Below are positions 1 through 8,891 of a stretch of DNA of 8,891 bases, piece by piece. The notes beneath the pieces were generated by a model. It searched no databases, was not told where the DNA came from, and was given only the letters and a program-made list of their open reading frames with translations. A program made the translations under genes and the position numbers. Position 1 is the stretch's first letter. Each line of letters opens with the position of its first letter. The stretch comes from a virus (taxonomy: Duplodnaviria; Heunggongvirae; Uroviricota; Caudoviricetes), in the IMG/VR virus record IMGVR_UViG_2778261689_000003. One strand, written 5' to 3'.

Positions 1-342
1 CTAATCGTGGGGGCAGGTCAGGAGTGCTATGTATATAATGCTATTTCTTAATTCAACAAACTTAATATTCTCAGCAATTAGATTTGAAAATGCACTCTCA
101 ATCATAATAGATAAATCAAAGCGACTTGCAGGAATGAGCCTTAAAAACTGCCATGGCTTTAAATAATCCACTAGTGATCTTGCTGGGTGTGTTACATTCA
201 AGTCAGTATCTATATTAAAGTGTTCAGGCATTTCAATAATATTTTTTTCTAGGACCCCCCTAATTACTTGAGTGCTTACCAATCCATTCAAATGAACATG
301 TAATTCTCCTTTATCCATCATTCGAGCTTCGTAAAGATCCAT
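1..342 (-). CDS. Adenosine/AMP-deaminase-fold (amidohydrolase superfamily) protein, N-terminal segment only (about 113 aa); possible truncated gene or pseudogene
   Basis: The supplied ORF 1..390 (-) contains the metal-binding signature ELHVHLNG near its N-terminus and ends in KFVELRNS, which matches the first ~110 residues of adenosine deaminase family proteins (E. coli Add has HRHLDG ... YVELRFSP). The in-frame stop TAG is the reverse complement of window positions 1-3, so the product is far shorter than the ~330 aa family. I prefer the start at the ATG complementary to 340-342 (SD-like AAGGT 7 nt upstream on the - strand) over the ORF-track start at 390, whose first 16 codons are Lys-rich AT-rich sequence. 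The locus is visibly AT-rich. Confidence 0.45.
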   Translation of the reverse strand: MDLYEARMMDKGELHVHLNGLVSTQVIRGVLEKNIIEMPEHFNIDTDLNVTHPARSLVDYLKPWQFLRLIPASRFDLSIMIESAFSNLIAENIKFVELRNSIIYIALLTCPHD

Positions 343-391
343 TTTAATTACCTTATATATCCAAACTCTTAATTTTCTCTTTTTTACCATA

Positions 392-401
392 GGATTAATC
401 C
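392..401. promoter_or_regulatory. Perfect 10-bp palindrome GGATTAATCC in the divergent intergenic region; candidate operator
   Basis: Read directly: GGATTAATCC is its own reverse complement. It lies between the deaminase-fold ORF and the TetR-like gene. The half-site GGATTAA recurs at 521-527. Confidence 0.25.
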
Positions 402-529
402 AAAATAAAGACCTTGTTGACTAAACCCTCATGTACAAAATGCACACTTACTCAAAAGGATCTGGAGGCAATCTCGACCTCCATGATTTAGTTCCTAGGG
501 ATAAGCAGAAATCTAGCACTGGATTAAAA

Positions 530-558
530 TTTAAAAATAATAATCAATAGGTTATAAT
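530..558 (+). promoter_or_regulatory. Candidate sigma70 promoter for the TetR-like gene (-35 TTTAAA at 530-535, 17-bp spacer, -10 TATAAT at 553-558)
   Basis: Perfect -10 hexamer TATAAT at 553-558; the -35 matches TTGACA at 4 of 6 positions with a 17-bp spacer. Sequence pattern only, no expression evidence. Confidence 0.25.
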
Positions 559-643
559 GGTTTTTATTCGCATCCATGGGATCTGCTGCTGCCCGCATGA
601 TGTTGGATGCGACGGCGCTGGCACGACCTCACCCGGTGAAACG

Positions 644-1090
644 ATGAAACGCGAAAGGGTTGTTCTTCGGGAAGGTGCAGTTGGACTTTCAATCGATGAC
701 GTTGCAAAAGAGGCTGGCGTCAGTAAGGCAACGGTAATGTACGATCATAAGTCAAAGCAAGATTTGCTCAGCGATCTCATCAGTCGCCTTATGCCAGTAG
801 AGGAGGAACGTGTTCAGCAAGCGATAGCGGAAAGTAATAATACCCCACATCCCGCACTCTATGGGCGAATTATTTCAGCCAGTAATGCTCTCAGTCATAC
901 TGAGAGAGCAGTAGTGCTGGCGGTCAGCGAATCGTTAACTAACGATACGAATATCAGGGACACCATGCGTTCCTGCACAAACAAAGATTTGGATGAGATA
1001 AAAAGAGGACCAAAACCAGACGTTGCCGTCCTGGTATATTTGGCGTTATCTGGTATCTACTGCCAAGAATTTTTTGATTTTTACAAATGA
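644..1090 (+). CDS. TetR-family-like HTH transcriptional regulator (short, about 148 aa)
   Basis: The segment LSIDDVAKEAGVSKATVMYDHKSKQDLLSDL matches the TetR N-terminal HTH signature (compare TetR [30 protein letters not shown]). Start chosen at ATG 644 (MKRERV), because the ORF-track start at 557 encodes an atypical Cys-rich leader (ICCCPHDVGCDG) and overlaps the candidate promoter. Helix 1 looks shortened and the C-terminal domain is small, so the protein may be degenerate. Stop TGA at 1088-1090. Confidence 0.55.
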   Translation: MKRERVVLREGAVGLSIDDVAKEAGVSKATVMYDHKSKQDLLSDLISRLMPVEEERVQQAIAESNNTPHPALYGRIISASNALSHTERAVVLAVSESLTNDTNIRDTMRSCTNKDLDEIKRGPKPDVAVLVYLALSGIYCQEFFDFYK

Positions 1091-2518: not shown

Positions 2519-2540
2519 TAAATTTTTCTCCCGGTAAAAA

Positions 2541-3287
2541 TTACTTCGCAATTCCTGGCTGGACGACATTCGGACGCCAGCTCTCCCAGTTAAAATTCAC
2601 CCATCGCCCGCCGTTCATGGTCATGCGATCCATAATCCGCTCGCCGAGCAATGTTTTCATGGCCTCATAGTTCAGGTTTGTCAGCATCCCCACGCTGCGC
2701 ATCGACGCTGTCCGGCGATCAACAATCTGGTGCAGTACCACCTGCTCGTTTTTCGTCTCGCGCTGAATGCCAATTTCATCAAGAACCAGCAGATCCACTT
2801 CGCACAGTTCCCGCAAAAATTTTTCGCCTGACTGCCCATCGTCATAGCTGGCGTGCAGGGCACTCATAACATCAGCCACGGTAACCACAATCACTGTCTG
2901 ACCGTCTTTCAGCAGGCGATTCCCGATAGCTGCCGCTAAGTGGTTCTTCCCGGTACCAGGTTTTCCGCTGAACGCAAAATTTGTACACCCGATCATCAGT
3001 TCATCAGCGATGGATTTCGCCTGACTCAACGCGTATCGCTGCCCTTCGTTCTGCACCTGGTAATTCGAAAACGAGCATTTGCGGTGCAATGGCTGGATGC
3101 CAGAGCGATTCAGAATTTTTTCCACCCGCAACTGACGATTCTGACGGTTGATCTCCTCACAACGTTTCTGGCCTTCGGAAAGTTGCCACTCGCGCCACTC
3201 CGCTACCGTCTTGAATGGCGCGGTTACATGTGACGGGGCCAGTCTGCGGATACGTTCAAGAACATCGCCTGTCGCAATATTTTTCAT
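2541..3287 (-). CDS. DnaC-like AAA+ helicase loader (phage replication protein, Rac YdaV-like), 248 aa
   Basis: Walker [18 protein letters not shown] and Walker [10 protein letters not shown] are present. The whole length is collinear with E. coli DnaC as I recall it (N-terminal PFKT, NRSGI.PLH, SF.NY, MLTN.N.EEM..LLGER.MDRM). ATG complementary to 3285-3287; stop complementary to 2541-2543. Confidence 0.9.
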
Positions 3288-3293
3288 GGTCAG

Positions 3294-4082
3294 TTACCCC
3301 CTGAAGCCTGGCGGGATCGCACTATCCGGTAACGAGACGGTGTTAACCTGTCGGAGTAACGTCTCAGGTCGAACACCTTTCGGCGCGAACAAGCCCTGGT
3401 ATTCATTGGCGATGCTGTGTCGAATCACCTGCTCAGGTGAAAAACCCTGCTGGCGGAATTTTTCCAGCTCCCGTATCGCCCCGTTAGCGCCCTGCTCCGT
3501 TCGAATCGGTTTTCGCAATGCCTGGCGAAATTCAACCCACTCACGCCAAAGCGAGACAGAAATCCAGTTCGGCAAAGTAATATCCAGAGGGTCAAACTTT
3601 TTGACACCTCGATTCCCCCGGGGGGGATTTAGGGGGGGATCTGTTTTTAGATCTTTATCTGTATCTTTATTAGTTGCCTTTGTGTTGACATCATGTTCAA
3701 ACACCACTTCAACATCTGTTTGAACACCTGTTAAATTTCTCTCTTGTTTTGTTTGAACATCTGCTTCCTTTCTGCTTCTTCTGGCCTGAACAGATGCTTT
3801 TCCTGCGGCTGATTTTTTGGTTAATTTTTCCCTGACTGATGCCAGATCTTCCTCAATCCGAAGATGCACCCATTCCTCGCCGTTATCGCAAAAAAACTCC
3901 TGCAAGGATGGTTCAACATCAGCCCATCGCTCGTTAGTCAGACGGGCAATTTTTGCCAGCCTGTTTTTAGGTATTGGCTTTCCTGTTTGCCAGTAATTGA
4001 ACATCAGCAACAAATACGCACCATGCTCCTCTGCTGACAAATGCATGGTGTCAGCCAGGTAATCAGCTATGTACAGTTGCAT
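3294..4082 (-). CDS. DUF1376-type (Rac YdaU-like) putative phage replication initiator/organiser, 262 aa
   Basis: N-terminus [34 protein letters not shown] fits my recollection of the DUF1376 N-terminal domain. A charged low-complexity linker precedes a C-terminal W-rich domain ([19 protein letters not shown]...). It sits immediately upstream of the DnaC-like gene with a 6-nt gap, the position held by ydaU in K-12 Rac. ATG complementary to 4080-4082, with AGGA 9 nt upstream. Confidence 0.75.
3693..3796. repeat. Iteron-like cluster of related 9-13 bp motifs (GTTTGAACA[C/T]CTG and relatives) in direct and inverted orientation, inside the YdaU-like coding region
   Basis: Read directly: ATGTTCAAACA 3693-3703 (inverted), TTCAACATCTG 3708-3718, GTTTGAACACCTG 3718-3730, GTTTGAACATCTG 3751-3763, TGAACAGATG 3787-3796 (inverted). 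An AT-rich segment with ATCTTTAT x2 (3651-3670) and C/G homopolymer tracts (3615-3638) follow on the gene's downstream side. Confidence 0.4.
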
Positions 4083-6105
4083 GTATGGTAATCCTGGTAA
4101 TTCAAACCTGGGACTGATAACTGCTTTTTTCGAAGCATACCTGAACGCTGACTACACCGATCGAGGACTGCTGACAAAAGAGTGGATGAAGGGTTATCGT
4201 GTTTCACACATCACTCGCACGGCTTCCGGTGCTAATGCTGGCGGCGGAAACCTCACCGATCGCGGCGAAGGTTTCGTACACGATCTGACGTCACTGGCGC
4301 GCGACGTAGCCACTGGCGTACTGGCCCGTTCAATGGATCTGGACATCTATAACCTTCATCCGGCACACGCTAAACGCATTGAGGAAATTATCGCTGAAAA
4401 TAAACCGCCCTTTTCTGTTTTCCGCGACAAATTCATCACCATGCCTGGCGGGCTGGATTATTCCCGCGCCATCGTGGTTGCGTCCGTAAAAGAAGCACCA
4501 ATTGGGATCGAGGTCATCCCCGCGCACGTCACTGAATATCTGAACAAAGTACTGACTGAAACCGATCATGCCAACCCTGATCCGGAAATCGTGGATATTG
4601 CCTGCGGTCGCTCCTCTGCCCCGATGCCGCAGCGAGTAACAGAAGAAGGAAAACAGGATGATGAAGAAAAACCGCAACCATCTGGAACAACGGCAGTTGA
4701 ACAGGGAGAGGCTGAAACAATGGAACCGGACGCAACTGAACATCATCAGGACACGCAGCCGCTGGATGCTCAGTCACAGGTAAATTCTGTTGATGCGAAA
4801 TATCAGGAACTGCGGGCAGAACTCCATGAAGCCCGGAAAAACATTCCATCAAAAAATCCTGTCGATGACGATAAATTGCTTGCTGCATCACGTGGTGAAT
4901 TTGTTGACGGAATTAGCGACCCGAACGATCCGAAATGGGTAAAGGGGATCCAGACTCGCGATTGTGTGTACCAGAACCAGCCAGAAACGGAAAAAACCAG
5001 CCCAGATATGAATCAACCTGAGCCAGTAGTGCAACAGGAACCGGAAATAGCCTGCAATGCCTGCGGCCAGACTGGCGGGGATAACTGCCCTGACTGTGGT
5101 GCGGTGATGGGCGACGCAACATACCAGGAAACATTCGATGAAGAGAGTCAGGTTGAAGCTAAGGAAAATGATCCGGAGGAAATGGAAGGCGCTGAACATC
5201 CGCACAATGAGAATGCTGGCAGCGATCCGCATCGCGATTGCAGTGATGAAACTGGCGAAGTCGCAGATCCCGTAATCGTAGAAGACATAGAGCCAGGTAT
5301 TTATTACGGAATTTCGAATGAGAATTACCACGCGGGTCCCGGTATCAGTAAGTCTCAGCTCGATGACATTGCTGATACTCCGGCACTATATTTGTGGCGT
5401 AAAAATGCCCCCGTGGACACCACAAAGACAAAAACGCTCGATTTAGGAACTGCTTTCCACTGCCGGGTACTTGAACCGGAAGAATTCAGTAACCGCTTTA
5501 TCGTAGCACCTGAATTTAACCGCCGTACAAACGCCGGAAAAGAAGAAGAGAAAGCGTTTCTGATGGAATGCGCAAGCACAGGAAAAACGGTTATCACTGC
5601 GGAAGAAGGCCGGAAAATTGAACTCATGTATCAAAGCGTTATGGCTTTGCCGCTGGGGCAATGGCTTGTTAAAAGCGCCGGACACGCTGAATCATCAATT
5701 TACTGGGAAGATCCTGAAACAGGAATTTTGTGTCGGTGCCGTCCGGACAAAATTATCCCTGAATTTCACTGGATCATGGACGTGAAAACTACGGCGGATA
5801 TTCAACGATTCAAAACCGCTTATTACGACTACCGCTATCACGTTCAGGATGCATTCTACAGTGACGGTTATGAAGCACAGTTTGGAGTGCAGCCAACTTT
5901 CGTTTTTCTGGTTGCCAGCACAACTATTGAATGCGGACGTTATCCGGTTGAAATTTTCATGATGGGCGAAGAAGCAAAACTGGCAGGTCAACAGGAATAT
6001 CACCGCAATCTGCGAACCCTGTCTGACTGCCTGAATACCGATGAATGGCCAGCTATTAAGACATTATCACTGCCCCGCTGGGCTAAGGAATATGCAAATG
6101 ACTAA
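4069..6105 (+). CDS. recE: Exodeoxyribonuclease VIII (RecE), 5'-truncated form (678 aa ORF) retaining the C-terminal nuclease domain
   Basis: The translation matches E. coli Rac RecE as I remember it, from ...[17 protein letters not shown] through the acidic linker, a CxxC-x7-CxxC zinc ribbon ([16 protein letters not shown], nt 5053-5097) and the C-terminal end ...[12 protein letters not shown]. Full-length K-12 RecE is 866 aa, so roughly the first 190 residues are absent (approximate, from memory). The frame is closed upstream by TAA at 4060-4062; the first ATGs are 4069 and 4081, neither with a convincing SD. Stop TAA at 6103-6105 overlaps the recT start. Confidence 0.85.
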
Positions 6106-6907
6106 GCAACCACCAATCGCAAAAGCCGATCTGCAAAAAACTCAGGGAAACCGTGCACCAGCAGCAGTTAAAAATAGCGACGTGATTAGTTTTATTAACC
6201 AGCCATCAATGAAAGAGCAACTGGCAGCAGCTCTTCCACGCCATATGACGGCTGAACGTATGATCCGTATCGCCACCACAGAAATTCGTAAAGTTCCGGC
6301 GTTAGGAAACTGTGACACTATGAGTTTTGTCAGTGCGATCGTACAGTGTTCACAGCTCGGACTTGAGCCAGGTAGCGCCCTCGGTCATGCATATTTACTG
6401 CCTTTTGGTAATAAAAACGAAAAGAGCGGTAAAAAGAACGTTCAGCTAATCATTGGCTATCGCGGCATGATTGATCTGGCTCGCCGTTCTGGTCAAATCG
6501 CCAGCCTGTCAGCCCGTGTTGTCCGTGAAGGTGACGAGTTTAGCTTCGAATTTGGCCTTGATGAAAAGTTAATACACCGCCCGGGAGAAAACGAAGATGC
6601 CCCGGTTACCCACGTCTATGCTGTCGCAAGACTGAAAGACGGAGGTACTCAGTTTGAAGTTATGACGCGCAAACAGATTGAGCTGGTGCGCAGCCTGAGT
6701 AAAGCTGGTAATAACGGGCCGTGGGTAACTCACTGGGAAGAAATGGCAAAGAAAACGGCTATTCGTCGCCTGTTCAAATATTTGCCCGTATCAATTGAGA
6801 TCCAGCGTGCAGTATCAATGGATGAAAAGGAACCACTGACAATCGATCCTGCAGATTCCTCTGTATTAACCGGGGAATACAGTGTAATCGATAATTCAGA
6901 GGAATAA
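6098..6907 (+). CDS. recT: RecT single-strand annealing protein, 269 aa
   Basis: The translation from [28 protein letters not shown]... to ...VIDNSEE matches E. coli Rac RecT. Start is the ATG at 6098 inside the overlap ATGACTAA with the recE stop, not the ORF-track start at 6041, which lies within recE. Stop TAA at 6905-6907. Confidence 0.95.
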
Positions 6908-6914
6908 TTCAGCC

Positions 6915-6950
6915 TGGCGGTGTAATGCACCGCCAACTTGAAATATTTTT
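6915..6950 (+). terminator. GC-rich stem-loop (8-bp stem TGGCGGTG/CACCGCCA, 5-nt loop) followed 9 nt later by T6; possible weak terminator or attenuator between recT and ralR
   Basis: Read directly: the stem is 6915-6922 paired with 6928-6935, and the T-run is 6945-6950. The T-tract is not immediately adjacent to the stem, so this is not a canonical intrinsic terminator. Confidence 0.25.
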
Positions 6951-6963
6951 TATGAGAAAAATT

Positions 6964-7158
6964 ATGAGATATGACAATGTTAAACCATGTCCATTTTGTG
7001 GTTGTCCATCAGTAACGGTGAAAGCCATTTCAGGATATTACCGAGCGAAGTGTAACGGATGCGAATCCCGAACCGGTTATGGTGGAAGTGAAAAAGAAGC
7101 ACTCGAAAGATGGAATAAACGAACCACTGGAAATAATAATGGAGGTGTTCATGTATAA
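6964..7158 (+). CDS. ralR: RalR / Lar-family restriction-alleviation zinc-ribbon protein (type I toxin in Rac), 64 aa
   Basis: The translation MRYDNVKPCPFCGCPSVTVKAISGYYRAKCNGCESRTGYGGSEKEALERWNKRTTGNNNGGVHV, with CxxCGC ... CxxC cysteines, matches K-12 RalR as I recall it. The start is taken at ATG 6964; the ORF-track frame extends upstream to 6925 without support. Confidence 0.85.
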   Translation: MRYDNVKPCPFCGCPSVTVKAISGYYRAKCNGCESRTGYGGSEKEALERWNKRTTGNNNGGVHV

Positions 7159-7360
7159 AATTACCGCCACTATTGAAAAGGAAGGTGGCACTCCTACTAA
7201 CTGGACAAGATATTCAAAATCTAAACTAACGAAATCAGAATGCGAAAAAATGCTCTCAGGTAAAAAAGAAGCAGGCGTTTCCAGAGAGCAGAAAGTAAAA
7301 CTGATAAATTTTAATTGCGAGAAACTTCAGTCCTCGAGAATTGCATTGTATTCAAATTAA
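7151..7360 (+). CDS. ydaC: YdaC-like small Rac prophage protein, 69 aa
   Basis: ATG 7151 is preceded by GGAGG (7141-7145) at 5-nt spacing and overlaps the ralR 3' end by 8 nt. The product MYKITATIEKEGGTPTNWTRYSK... matches my recollection of Rac YdaC. Stop TAA at 7358-7360. Confidence 0.8.
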   Translation: MYKITATIEKEGGTPTNWTRYSKSKLTKSECEKMLSGKKEAGVSREQKVKLINFNCEKLQSSRIALYSN

Positions 7361-7371
7361 AACTTCATAGC

Positions 7372-7387
7372 TGATTATTAATAATCA
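7372..7387. promoter_or_regulatory. Perfect 16-bp AT-rich palindrome TGATTATTAATAATCA upstream of the xis-like gene; candidate operator or protein-binding site
   Basis: Read directly: the sequence is its own reverse complement. It sits in the 78-bp ydaC-xis intergenic region, 52 bp upstream of the xis ATG. Confidence 0.3.
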
Positions 7388-7438
7388 ACATCGGGCGTCA
7401 ATTTCAGTCTAACATTGGCGCCTGCCAGAGGTGATGCG

Positions 7439-7654
7439 ATGGCACAAGTAATCTTTAATGAAGAGTGGATGGTTGAATACGGCCTGATGCTTCGCACTGG
7501 TCTGGGGGCCAGACAAATTGAAGCATACCGCCAGAACTGTTGGGTGGAGGGCTTCCACTTCAAACGAGTATCTCCTTTAGGTAAGCCAGACAGCAAACGA
7601 GGGATTATCTGGTACAACTATCCAAAGATAAATCAGTTTATCAAAGACTCATGA
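7439..7654 (+). CDS. xisR: Excisionase-like protein (Rac YdaQ/XisR-like), 71 aa
   Basis: ATG 7439 is preceded by GAGGTG at 5-nt spacing; the ORF-track start at 7415 is a TTG. The product [44 protein letters not shown]... matches Rac YdaQ as I recall it. Stop TGA at 7652-7654 is 1 nt before the integrase ATG. Confidence 0.8.
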
Positions 7655-7655
7655 T

Positions 7656-8891
7656 ATGTCTAAATTACCAACAGGTGTCGAGATTAGAGGTAGATACATT
7701 CGCATCTGGTTCATGTTTCGAGGAAAACGATGTCGGGAAACATTAAAAGGCTGGGAGATTACAAACAGTAATATTAAAAAGGCCGGAAATTTAAGAGCGC
7801 TGATAGTTCATGAAATAAACTCCGGTGAATTTGAGTATTTAAGACGTTTTCCCCAGTCCAGCACTGGGGCAAAAATGGTGACAACGAGAGTCATAAAAAC
7901 GTTCGGAGAGCTTTGTGATATCTGGACAAAAATTAAAGAGACAGAGTTAACAACAAACACAATGAAGAAAACGAAATCACAATTAAAAACACTCAGAATA
8001 ATAATTTGTGAAAGTACCCCGATATCACATATTCGTTATAGCGATATCTTAAACTACCGGAATGAACTGCTGCATGGAGAAACGCTTTACCTGGATAATC
8101 CAAGATCCAACAAAAAAGGAAGAACCGTGCGCACAGTTGATAACTATATCGCCCTGCTCTGTTCGCTGTTGCGTTTTGCGTATCAGTCGGGATTTATATC
8201 AACCAAACCATTTGAAGGAGTAAAAAAATTACAGCGAAACAGAATAAAGCCTGATCCGTTATCTAAAACAGAATTCAATGCATTAATGGAAAGTGAAAAA
8301 GGACAGAGCCAGAACTTGTGGAAATTTGCCGTTTACTCAGGACTTCGTCACGGGGAACTGGCAGCTCTGGCGTGGGAGGATGTGGATCTCGAAAAGGGAA
8401 TAGTGAATGTCAGAAGAAACCTGACGATACTTGATATGTTCGGTCCCCCAAAAACAAATGCCGGGATCCGAACAGTAACACTACTGCAGCCTGCTCTTGA
8501 AGCACTGAAGGAGCAATACAAACTGACCGGGCATCATCGCAAAAGCGAAATCACCTTTTATCATCGGGAGTACGGCAGAACCGAAAAGCAAAAACTGCAT
8601 TTTGTTTTCATGCCCAGGGTGTGTAACGGAAAACAAAAACCTTATTACTCGGTAAGCAGTTTGGGGGCAAGGTGGAATGCAGCAGTAAAACGTGCTGGTA
8701 TTCGCCGCCGTAATCCGTACCATACGCGGCATACTTTTGCCTGCTGGCTGTTGACGGCAGGAGCGAACCCGGCATTTATAGCCAGCCAAATGGGGCATGA
8801 AACTGCGCAGATGGTGTATGAAATTTACGGTATGTGGATTGATGACATGAACGACGAACAGATAGCCATGTTGAATGCGCGGTTATCGTAG
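7656..8891 (+). CDS. intR: Tyrosine-type site-specific integrase (Rac IntR-like), 411 aa
   Basis: N-terminus MSKLPTGVEIRGRYIRIWFMFRGKRCRETLKGW and the C-terminal catalytic region (RHGELAALAWEDVD, H-x-x-R in NPYHTRHTFACWLL, and QMGHETAQMVYEIYG carrying the nucleophilic Tyr context) are present. It is preceded by a xis-like gene, and its stop TAG is the final 3 bases of the window. Confidence 0.95.
   Translation: MSKLPTGVEIRGRYIRIWFMFRGKRCRETLKGWEITNSNIKKAGNLRALIVHEINSGEFEYLRRFPQSSTGAKMVTTRVIKTFGELCDIWTKIKETELTTNTMKKTKSQLKTLRIIICESTPISHIRYSDILNYRNELLHGETLYLDNPRSNKKGRTVRTVDNYIALLCSLLRFAYQSGFISTKPFEGVKKLQRNRIKPDPLSKTEFNALMESEKGQSQNLWKFAVYSGLRHGELAALAWEDVDLEKGIVNVRRNLTILDMFGPPKTNAGIRTVTLLQPALEALKEQYKLTGHHRKSEITFYHREYGRTEKQKLHFVFMPRVCNGKQKPYYSVSSLGARWNAAVKRAGIRRRNPYHTRHTFACWLLTAGANPAFIASQMGHETAQMVYEIYGMWIDDMNDEQIAMLNARLS

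Follow-up and report, generated by a model that had tools for sequence, protein, structure and literature searches.

The window, that is, the whole stretch of 8,891 nucleotides analysed here, comes from a virus of the class Caudoviricetes (IMG/VR record IMGVR_UViG_2778261689_000003) and contains two divergent genes that overlap head to head. From the annotations of intact relatives and of strain EC-07, which carries an identical locus, it belongs to a Rac-type prophage, with the arm intR-xisR-rcbA-ralR-recT-recE beside ttcA. The racR/ydaS-ydaT immunity module, which normally separates the recE arm from the ydaU-ydaV arm, was absent. The following features were located (L002 is the intact Rac reference).

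2541–3287, minus strand: ydaV, coding for a DnaC/IstB-like ATPase, downstream of ydaU′ in the former rightward early operon
3294–4082, minus strand: ydaU′ (262 aa), a 5′-truncated, replication-initiator-like gene with a DUF1376 domain
4033–4055, no strand: inverted repeat GCTGACA/TGTCAGC, native ydaU coding sequence
4058–4063, no strand: first copy of GGTAAT, native ydaU sequence
4069–6105, plus strand: ′recE open reading frame (678 aa), MYSCMYG followed in frame by RecE 196–866
4083–4088, minus strand: leftover ydaU codons 22–23, upstream of Met24 and with no in-frame start (comparison with L002 7064–7073; list of open reading frames)
4089–4092, no strand: deletion junction, a 4-bp microhomology TAAT of which one copy is kept
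4096–4101, no strand: third copy of GGTAAT, lying in native recE, 4 bp rightward of the junction (L002 11456–11461)
5317–6102, plus strand: complete C-terminal PD-(D/E)XK nuclease domain of RecE (exonuclease VIII), from Pfam and PDB matches
6098–6907, plus strand: recT, intact and identical to K-12 RecT (WP_000166319.1; Pfam RecT, E=9.7e-56)

On the plus strand, the RecE frame is closed by an in-frame TAA at 4060–4062, just upstream of ATG 4069 and ATG 4081, as an earlier sequence-only reading of the window had described. The 14-bp overlap of the divergent genes given in that reading is correct for the start at 4069 and is reduced to 2 bp with the start at 4081 chosen by PGAP, in whose annotation recE is a pseudogene ("incomplete; missing N-terminus"). 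The product begins with seven new residues (MYSCMYG), which the antisense strand of ydaU supplies, and continues as a RecE that differs from those of K-12 and MS15047 by N231Y and E723K. The full-length 866-aa RecE with its native N-terminus and start is not present, residues 1–195 being gone. The claim that the C-terminal nuclease domain and recT had been kept was borne out, both being complete: DUF3799 matched ′recE residues 427–662 (E=2.6e-28), and the whole chain of the crystal structure 3h4r ("Exodeoxyribonuclease 8"; positions 4–265) was covered by residues 417–678 (E=5.6e-180). If expressed, this fragment of RecE should have nuclease activity. The frame of ′recE has stayed open with only two amino-acid changes, which would fit a recent event but also a degree of purifying selection. 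The tetranucleotide AGGT at 4056–4059, 9 nt before ATG 4069, resembles a Shine-Dalgarno sequence and, like the open frame, counts against the reading as a silent deletion scar.

On the minus strand, the 262-aa YdaU-like frame and its ATG complementary to 4080–4082 were found as described, and residues 1–81 matched DUF1376 (profile positions 3–86 of 86, E=1.7e-24). This ATG had been taken for the start of the gene, which did not hold: in intact Rac, whose YdaU has 285 aa, the codon is the internal Met24, and therefore ydaU is 5′-truncated as well. The native start lies 69 nt further upstream, in the deleted segment with ydaS-ydaT, and the promoter of the ydaU operon was presumably deleted too; ydaV would then have lost its promoter. 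The TAAT at 4089–4092, beyond the leftover codons, could have come from either parent.

Base-by-base reading and breakpoint mapping against near-identical intact Rac prophages beside ttcA revealed that 4,379 bp are absent from the window at 4089–4092. Homology to intact Rac ends at 4092 for the left arm and begins at 4089 for the right arm, so that the extra DNA of the relatives lies exactly between these two positions, and the proposal that the whole Rac immunity region is missing by deletion was supported. The alignment to K-12 Rac and other Rac-like prophages, which the same reading had put forward for locating the breakpoint, mapped it to the TAAT, and RecE homology stops at 4089 rather than continuing upstream of 4060. 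The TAAT occurs twice in the intact reference (L002 7070–7073 and 11449–11452) and once in the window. The junction thus has the features of a microhomology deletion, namely flanks collinear with the intact relative and a short direct repeat that bounds the lost DNA on both sides and survives as a single copy; the two parents and the 4-bp overlap account for every junction base, with no filler DNA. Base assignment left no IS bases at the junction, unlike in allele L014, and the junction is unrelated to the Rac attachment core AAGAAAGAACAATACAACCTGAACAA, as obtained by comparing both prophage ends in K-12. A longer repeat, GGTAAT, situated 9 bp from the junction, was not used by the deletion, which counts somewhat against this origin.

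The lost segment comprises some 20 codons at the start of ydaU, the genes ydaT, ydaS, racR, ydaG, ydaF, sieB, kilR, ydaE and racC, and codons 1–195 of recE. The intact relative is annotated, from ydaU to recT, in the order ydaT, ydaS, racR, a phage protein (= ydaG), ydaF, sieB, kilR, ydaE, racC and the 866-aa recE, and K-12 MG1655 has the same order with identical proteins; the gene list given in the sequence-only reading agreed with the annotations of MS15047 and MG1655. K-12 Rac resembles the window in its site next to ttcA, in gene order (intR-xisR-rcbA-ralR-recT-recE-racC-ydaE-kilR-sieB-ydaF-ydaG-racR-ydaS-ydaT-ydaU-ydaV) and in identical RecT, IntR and XisR proteins, and the two parental sequences at the junction are 100% and 99.9% identical in K-12. 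One difference from K-12 Rac is the missing 4,379-bp stretch that begins at ydaU codon ~21 and runs to recE codon 195.

The window matched nine genomes in a single piece with 100% identity, whereas MS15047, NCTC9041 and others matched with 99.9% identity in two pieces spanning 13,250 bp vs. 8,872 bp; only 5 substitutions over 8.8 kb separate the window from MS15047. With a 300-bp probe across the junction, the exact junction was found contiguous in only nine of 5,426 complete E. coli genomes; in intact relatives, RecE does not begin at this position. In about 2,000 genomes the best hit to the probe was one half only, and in K-12 and other intact relatives the two halves are 4.4 kb apart. The nine assemblies sharing the junction derive from different hosts and countries, and the junction is identical in all of them. 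That the window shows how another Rac-like phage is natively built, YdaU standing next to a short RecE, or that it was wrongly assembled, has a probability close to nil: no supporting evidence was found, RecE homology sets in suddenly at codon 196, in the middle of the gene, that of ydaU stops near codon 21, relatives of 99.9% identity are intact, and the junction is common to nine independent assemblies. Deleted and intact alleles were surveyed with a padded two-anchor query, intact immunity regions varying in length from 3.7 to 4.4 kb. The argument that RecE-C/RecT had been selected for, as these are retained in all alleles, was rejected as ascertainment bias because the survey anchors required those sequences.

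The sequence motifs around the overlap had been suggested to mark the junction or cryptic promoters. The positions given for the inverted repeat and the three GGTAAT copies were correct, but the repeat and copies 1 and 3 are native sequence and not products of the junction; the repeat is identical in intact Rac (L002 7014–7036) and in K-12, where window 3941–4092 finds a 100% match. Only copy 2 (4087–4092) contains the junction microhomology TAAT. The candidate promoter composed of CTGACA, an 18-nt spacer and GGTAAT failed a consensus scan. In a crude scan of 3700–4500, no promoter-like site was detected upstream of either truncated gene, and the single hit, at 4171–4200, falls within ′recE and does not exceed what shuffled sequences yield. 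Upstream of ′recE the scan detected no sigma-70-like site, weak, non-consensus or read-through transcription being beyond its reach. It had been stated that the RecE-C/RecT pair could work if transcribed: the nuclease domain and recT are intact, but the sequence gave no evidence of a promoter. A further idea, that the junction was favoured because it creates a TAA stop, a promoter or a ribosome-binding site, finds no support in the frames and hexamers.

The deletion, its exact ends, its content and its rarity are established by these comparisons, and the head-to-head overlap is very probably the scar of a single 4,379-bp deletion in a Rac-type prophage at ttcA, which would have silenced and detoxified the prophage. 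The 5′ end of ydaU was joined to recE codon 196 at TAAT by an event that probably belongs to the class of RecA-independent, microhomology-mediated illegitimate recombination. It removed the immunity and early-control module, with the repressor gene racR, ydaS/ydaT (toxic if derepressed), kilR and sieB, and presumably both divergent early promoters with it. What was left are two 5′-truncated, presumably promoterless genes head to head, and from the consensus scan ydaU′-ydaV and ′recE-recT are most likely silent or weakly transcribed. The event appears to have happened once and then to have been inherited in a small lineage. The racR gene is essential, as it represses ydaS/ydaT (PMC5700373), and ydaS was never found without racR in 154 genomes (Krishnamurthi et al. 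2017, PMC5700373); Rac toxin genes (ydaS, kilR, ralR) have been lost in most strains (PMC5700373). Because racR can only go together with ydaS/ydaT, the net effect would be a prophage both locked and detoxified, which is also its likely selective rationale. The window allele, with racR, ydaS, ydaT and kilR lost together, fits the pattern of Krishnamurthi et al. 2017, in which only gene presence and absence were recorded, whereas exact breakpoints, microhomology and multiple independent alleles are given here. Loss of the immunity region is ordinary prophage decay, and recE is already marked as a pseudogene in public annotation.

At least nine further independent IS-free deletions were found at the Rac immunity locus, ten with the window allele. 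Six of the ten (window, CH4799, FDN-24, CP61_Sichuan, PE164 and VG48B2) have a GTAA junction, against about 2–3% expected per junction (1.9–2.6% in simulation on real sequence), and in a seventh, WL164, the left break also follows GGTA. Breakpoints were re-used as well. The first GGTAAT (window 4058–4063) is the identical left breakpoint of two independent alleles (FDN-24/FDN-9 and PE164/E105/F2_81), CP61 and VG48B2 share the same GGTAAC in recE (reference positions 8233/8235), and the right end of AF56 and the left end of GPEC206-621 are at most 2 bp apart. A simple origin from random microhomology is strained by the six GTAA junctions and the common breakpoints, and a deletion directed by sequence, in which a nuclease, topoisomerase, recombinase or transposase acting on pseudo-sites prefers (G)GTA|A in Rac at hot spots, is an unlikely alternative. 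Against it, the motif was noticed post hoc and gives p ~0.01 once shared endpoints are counted once and 256 tetramers are corrected for, and the junctions of SCZE5, AF56 and GPEC206-621 are unrelated. The wider proposal that loss of the Rac immunity region may be recurrent and sequence-directed, some activity breaking and rejoining DNA at (G)GTA|A sites, is unlikely.

No candidate enzyme fitted. Action of IntR/XisR on secondary attachment sites was rejected, the Rac core bearing no resemblance to GGTAA. The left breakpoint of the intact parent, GGTAATGCGGCCA, matches the IS1 right inverted repeat at 11 of 13 positions and is among the two best such matches in 8 kb; the match was nevertheless put down to coincidence and not to IS1 transposase acting on pseudo-ends, since cleavage at the terminus would not leave the GGTAAT that is kept here, and nothing similar is found at the other breakpoints. 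The DNA gyrase cleavage motif determined by Topo-Seq is long and degenerate (PMC6379681). Similarity to Xer/cer arms, Pin-type crossover sites, the consensus sequences of RuvC and topoisomerase IB, the TTAC target of IS200/IS605 and the BREX site GGTAAG were considered informally, and none appeared to fit both the position and all the breakpoints. The same applied to Dcm/Vsr sites; CCWGG adjoins three breakpoints.

In K-12, laboratory sbcA mutations in Rac switch on recE and recT and suppress recB recC, and papers of the Clark laboratory reportedly describe some sbcA alleles as deletions or gene fusions. C-terminal RecE fragments are sufficient with RecT in Red/ET recombineering. The window resembles the laboratory sbcA mutants in that the recE-silencing region is lost and the RecE C-terminus and recT are retained; the repressor and the region upstream of recE (racR through racC) have been removed, as expected of an sbcA-type change. 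Since sbcA has been described as activating recET (PMC9504249), the window might represent a natural activation of this kind, in which a cryptic promoter in the ydaU antisense drives MYSCMYG-RecE(196–866) and recT to give a constitutive, working RecET. The open frame, its in-frame ATGs with the AGGT upstream, and the intact nuclease domain and recT agree with this. It is nonetheless quite improbable: no promoter-like site was found upstream by the consensus scan, the candidate −10 hexamer GGTAAT lacks the essential A at position 2, and the candidate hexamers belong to native ydaU and are found in K-12 too, whose recE is silent. The PGAP pseudogene call and the restriction of the allele to nine of 5,426 genomes argue in the same direction. 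Moreover, sbcA alleles were selected for expression, whereas the consensus scan points to a window recE without a fused promoter or expressed upstream frame. Compared with recombineering RecE (Fu et al. 2012, cited in PMC11610992), the window protein is longer (196–866), has seven foreign N-terminal residues, carries N231Y and E723K and has no engineered promoter; its residues 417–678 correspond to the C-terminal nuclease domain of structure 3H4R.

That the window allele arose by an adjacent deletion at an IS element which was later lost is very improbable. In strain 300081 an IS1 exactly replaces the immunity region, between ydaU′ and racC′, which speaks for such a route, but the junction bases of the window are all parental, with no IS remnant, and two or three rare steps would be needed. 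At least one other record, B19695, also has an IS1 in the region.

By itself, a single deletion of this type matters little, being another case in which one step cost a cryptic prophage its repressor along with its toxins and kil genes. Because racR, ydaS/T and kilR are gone, Rac cannot be derepressed in the nine carrier strains, among them L9, EC-07 and LD27-1. For recombination work in these strains it matters that RecT remains intact and that the RecE nuclease fragment may be active. The GTAA junctions and re-used breakpoints are the only part that may lead to something new; should a larger survey bear the pattern out, a specific hot-spot mechanism that disarms the Rac prophage would be indicated. 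The window and K-12 also differ to the left of ydaV, where the window has DUF1627, DUF977, a TetR-family gene and an amidohydrolase/NTP pyrophosphatase/SIR2 cluster, and K-12 has the rzoD/trkG region.

The entire window is E. coli DNA, a Rac-type prophage adjoining ttcA. One-piece matches with 100% identity were obtained in nine complete genomes. In the next-ranking genomes, among them MS15047 and NCTC9041, the 99.9% match was split in two and extended over 13,250 bp as compared with 8,872 bp. The annotated gene order in EC-07 is ydaV, ydaU (262 aa), recE, recT, ralR, rcbA, xisR, intR and ttcA, with recE annotated as a pseudogene ("incomplete; missing N-terminus"). In the intact relative MS15047 the order is ydaV, ydaU (285 aa), ydaT, ydaS, racR, a small phage protein gene (ydaG), ydaF, sieB, kilR, ydaE, racC, recE (866 aa), recT and onward. 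The Rac gene content of K-12 given in the sequence-only reading was accurate, since K-12 MG1655 shows the MS15047 order with identical YdaU, YdaT, YdaS, RacR, RecE and RecT proteins.

The parental sites were read in MS15047 and then mapped computationally. Homology to intact Rac extended through 4092 on the left side and from 4089 on the right, each end of the missing 4,379-bp segment bearing one copy of the four common bases, TAAT. The proposed mapping against K-12 and other Rac prophages was run and gave the same limits in MS15047 and K-12 (K-12 identity 100% across window 3941-4092, and 99.9% to the right, starting at 4089). Two 5'-truncated genes are thus placed head to head:

3294-4082, - strand, 262-aa ORF (ydaU'), start codon complementary to 4080-4082
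4069-6105, + strand, 678-aa ORF ('recE)

All the coordinates quoted in the sequence-only reading were correct when read from the sequence. An in-frame TAA (4060-4062) directly precedes ATG 4069 and ATG 4081, the two ORFs overlap by 14 bp (2 bp with the PGAP start at 4081), and the inverted repeat (4033-4039 and 4049-4055) and three GGTAAT copies lie where they had been placed. The ATG at 4080-4082, correctly located, is not the gene's own start but internal Met24, because ydaU is also truncated: the deletion removed its original start codon and roughly 20 codons at the 5' end. Likewise, of the motifs suggested to mark the junction only the second GGTAAT does so, its last four bases being the microhomology; the inverted repeat and the first copy are ordinary ydaU coding sequence, unchanged in intact Rac, and the third is ordinary recE sequence. 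The candidate promoter (CTGACA, 18 nt, GGTAAT) belongs to the native ydaU gene, and it failed a consensus scan. In that scan (3700-4500) no promoter-like site was found upstream of ydaU' or recE', the single match lying within recE' and scoring no better than shuffles. With these three corrections (ydaU truncation, native motifs, no promoter evidence), the deletion interpretation was supported overall.

In the truncated YdaU the Pfam domain DUF1376 is nearly whole (profile positions 3-86 of 86). Codons 1-195 of recE were deleted, and the 678-aa product consists of MYSCMYG, encoded by the ydaU antisense strand, followed by RecE 196-866, with two substitutions relative to K-12/MS15047 RecE, N231Y and E723K. 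The RecE C-terminal nuclease domain is complete (Pfam DUF3799, residues 427-662; PDB 3h4r matching remnant residues 417-678, E=5.6e-180), and recT is intact (Pfam). Both substitutions are non-synonymous: N231Y (window 4195) is an A to T change converting another native GGTAAT to GGTTAT, and E723K (window 5671) lies inside the nuclease domain. The recT start is ATG 6041 in the ORF list (288 aa) versus 6098-6907 in RefSeq (269 aa), both overlapping the recE end (6105).

Of 5,426 complete genomes, 9 contained a 300-bp junction probe as one uninterrupted match, always at 100% identity; 2,081 genomes matched the probe, in most of them with one half only as best match, and its halves lay 4.4 kb apart in intact relatives including K-12. 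The nine carriers, which originate from humans, poultry, duck, pork and fish meat of several countries, had identical flanks. Alignment to MS15047 shows 5 substitutions along 8.8 kb of the window. Judged from these sequences, the junction is consistent with one deletion that arose fairly recently and was passed down in one lineage.

The element is a Rac prophage without its immunity module. The lost segment carries racR, which encodes the repressor, together with ydaS-ydaT, the divergent operon under RacR repression. racR is essential, derepressed ydaS/ydaT being lethal; ydaS was never found without racR in 154 genomes, and most strains lack the Rac toxin genes (PMC5700373). As racR, ydaS, ydaT and kilR were deleted together, the deletion would be viable and the liability gone. 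Both arms lost their early control region as well, where the promoters are presumably located, and ydaU'-ydaV and 'recE-recT are left without known promoters. Accordingly, the gene overlap is read as a scar and not as a regulatory arrangement.

No sign of transcription of the RecE fragment was found in the sequence; if transcribed, it is probably an active nuclease. Truncated RecE reportedly functions with RecT, a result attributed to Fu et al. 2012. That work is cited in PMC11610992. In addition, recET is activated by sbcA mutations (PMC9504249). Laboratory sbcA rearrangements are alike in what is removed, whereas activation of recE in the window is conjecture; the deletion agrees with the natural erosion already documented for Rac. 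That recE is a remnant was already marked by PGAP, and what is new is the precise mapping of this prophage-decay deletion.

Other deletion alleles were surveyed with two anchors (ydaV; recE C-terminus plus recT 5' end) split by random padding, listing complete genomes with anchors within 5.4 kb (29 of the 2,248 having either anchor). VG48B2 comes from an earlier survey and is absent from these 29 records, and four survey records (Combat13F7, B19695, NJS001 and STEC799) are omitted from the table.

Table. Deletion alleles; junctions in MS15047 reference coordinates.
This window (9 genomes): ydaU' to 'recE; 4017-4021 to 8397; microhomology TAAT
CH4799 (1): ydaT' to 'recE; 4237 to 8131
FDN-24 / FDN-9 (2): ydaU' to 'recE; 3991 to 9032
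PE164 / E105 / F2_81 (3): ydaU' to 'recE; 3991 to 9250
CP61_Sichuan (1): ydaU' to 'recE; 3404 to 8233
VG48B2 (1): ydaU' to 'recE; about 3368 to 8235
WL164 (1): ydaV' to upstream of kilR, recE intact; 2812 to about 6891
SCZE5 and three others (4): ydaU' to 'recE; 3453 to 9413; 2 extra bases (CC)
AF56 (1): ydaV' to upstream of ydaG; 2532 to 5716; microhomology CCA
GPEC206-621 / LR881940 (2): own repressor kept, ydaG to recE codon ~409 lost; 5718 to 9041; microhomology CA
300081 (1): IS1 in place of immunity region; junction not applicable

Complete E. coli genomes thus contain at least ten independent IS-free deletions and one IS1 replacement that eliminate the Rac immunity/kil region wholly or in part, at a locus spanning window 2541-6105. 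Retention of the recE C-terminus and recT in all alleles is uninformative on selection, because the anchors required both.

The deletion itself is of low interest, and the sole lead worth following is a recurrent junction pattern. GTAA lies across the join in six of ten IS-free junctions (atGGTAATcc, caGGGTAACgg, caGGTAACcg, ccCGTAACgc, caGGTAAGgg and gtGTAAACgc), and GGTA likewise precedes the left break of WL164, a seventh allele; 1.9-2.6% per junction was expected from random breakpoints simulated on real sequence. The excess gave p ~0.01 with shared-endpoint alleles counted once and 256 tetramers allowed for (far smaller uncorrected), for a motif picked post hoc. Some breakpoints recur: the left end of FDN-24 is exactly that of PE164, at the 4058-4063 GGTAAT of the window, CP61 and VG48B2 break at one and the same GGTAAC of recE, and the AF56 right end and GPEC206-621 left end are at most 2 bp apart. 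The microhomologies are short (1-4 bp). Among the candidates considered no mechanism was found: several consensus sequences did not fit, nor did IntR secondary sites or IS1 pseudo-ends, the cleavage geometry being wrong for the transposase, and the degenerate gyrase motif offered no clear fit. The pattern leaves the verdict on the window's deletion unchanged.

In the intact parent the left breakpoint lies in GGTAATGCGGCCA (intact Rac locus L002, 7068-7080; first 6 bases corresponding to window 4087-4092), which agrees at 11 of 13 positions with the IS1 right terminal inverted repeat (GGTGATGCTGCCA) and is among the two best matches in 8 kb. This likeness is probably a coincidence.

Left of the replication genes (window 1-1090; locus L001, 3998-7071) the cargo is unlike that of K-12:

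about 644-1090, + strand, TetR-family regulator
after the TetR-family gene, - strand, amidohydrolase/adenosine-deaminase-like gene, non-canonical purine NTP pyrophosphatase and SIR2-family protein

This cluster may be a cassette for defence or nucleotide depletion. In this position IteA/IteS (locus L006) or a DUF262 gene (locus L003) is found in other Rac variants. Intact immunity regions between the same flanks fall into at least three lengths, about 3.68, 4.19-4.25 and 4.38 kb (e.g., E. coli W and SE11), which indicates alternative immunity cassettes in otherwise near-identical prophages. The Rac attachment repeat in the ttcA 5' end (K-12 locus L010, 26389-26431 versus 3329-3371) is an imperfect 43-bp repeat with a 26-bp identical core, AAGAAAGAACAATACAACCTGAACAA; TTTGCCCC occurs several times nearby and may represent arm-type integrase sites.
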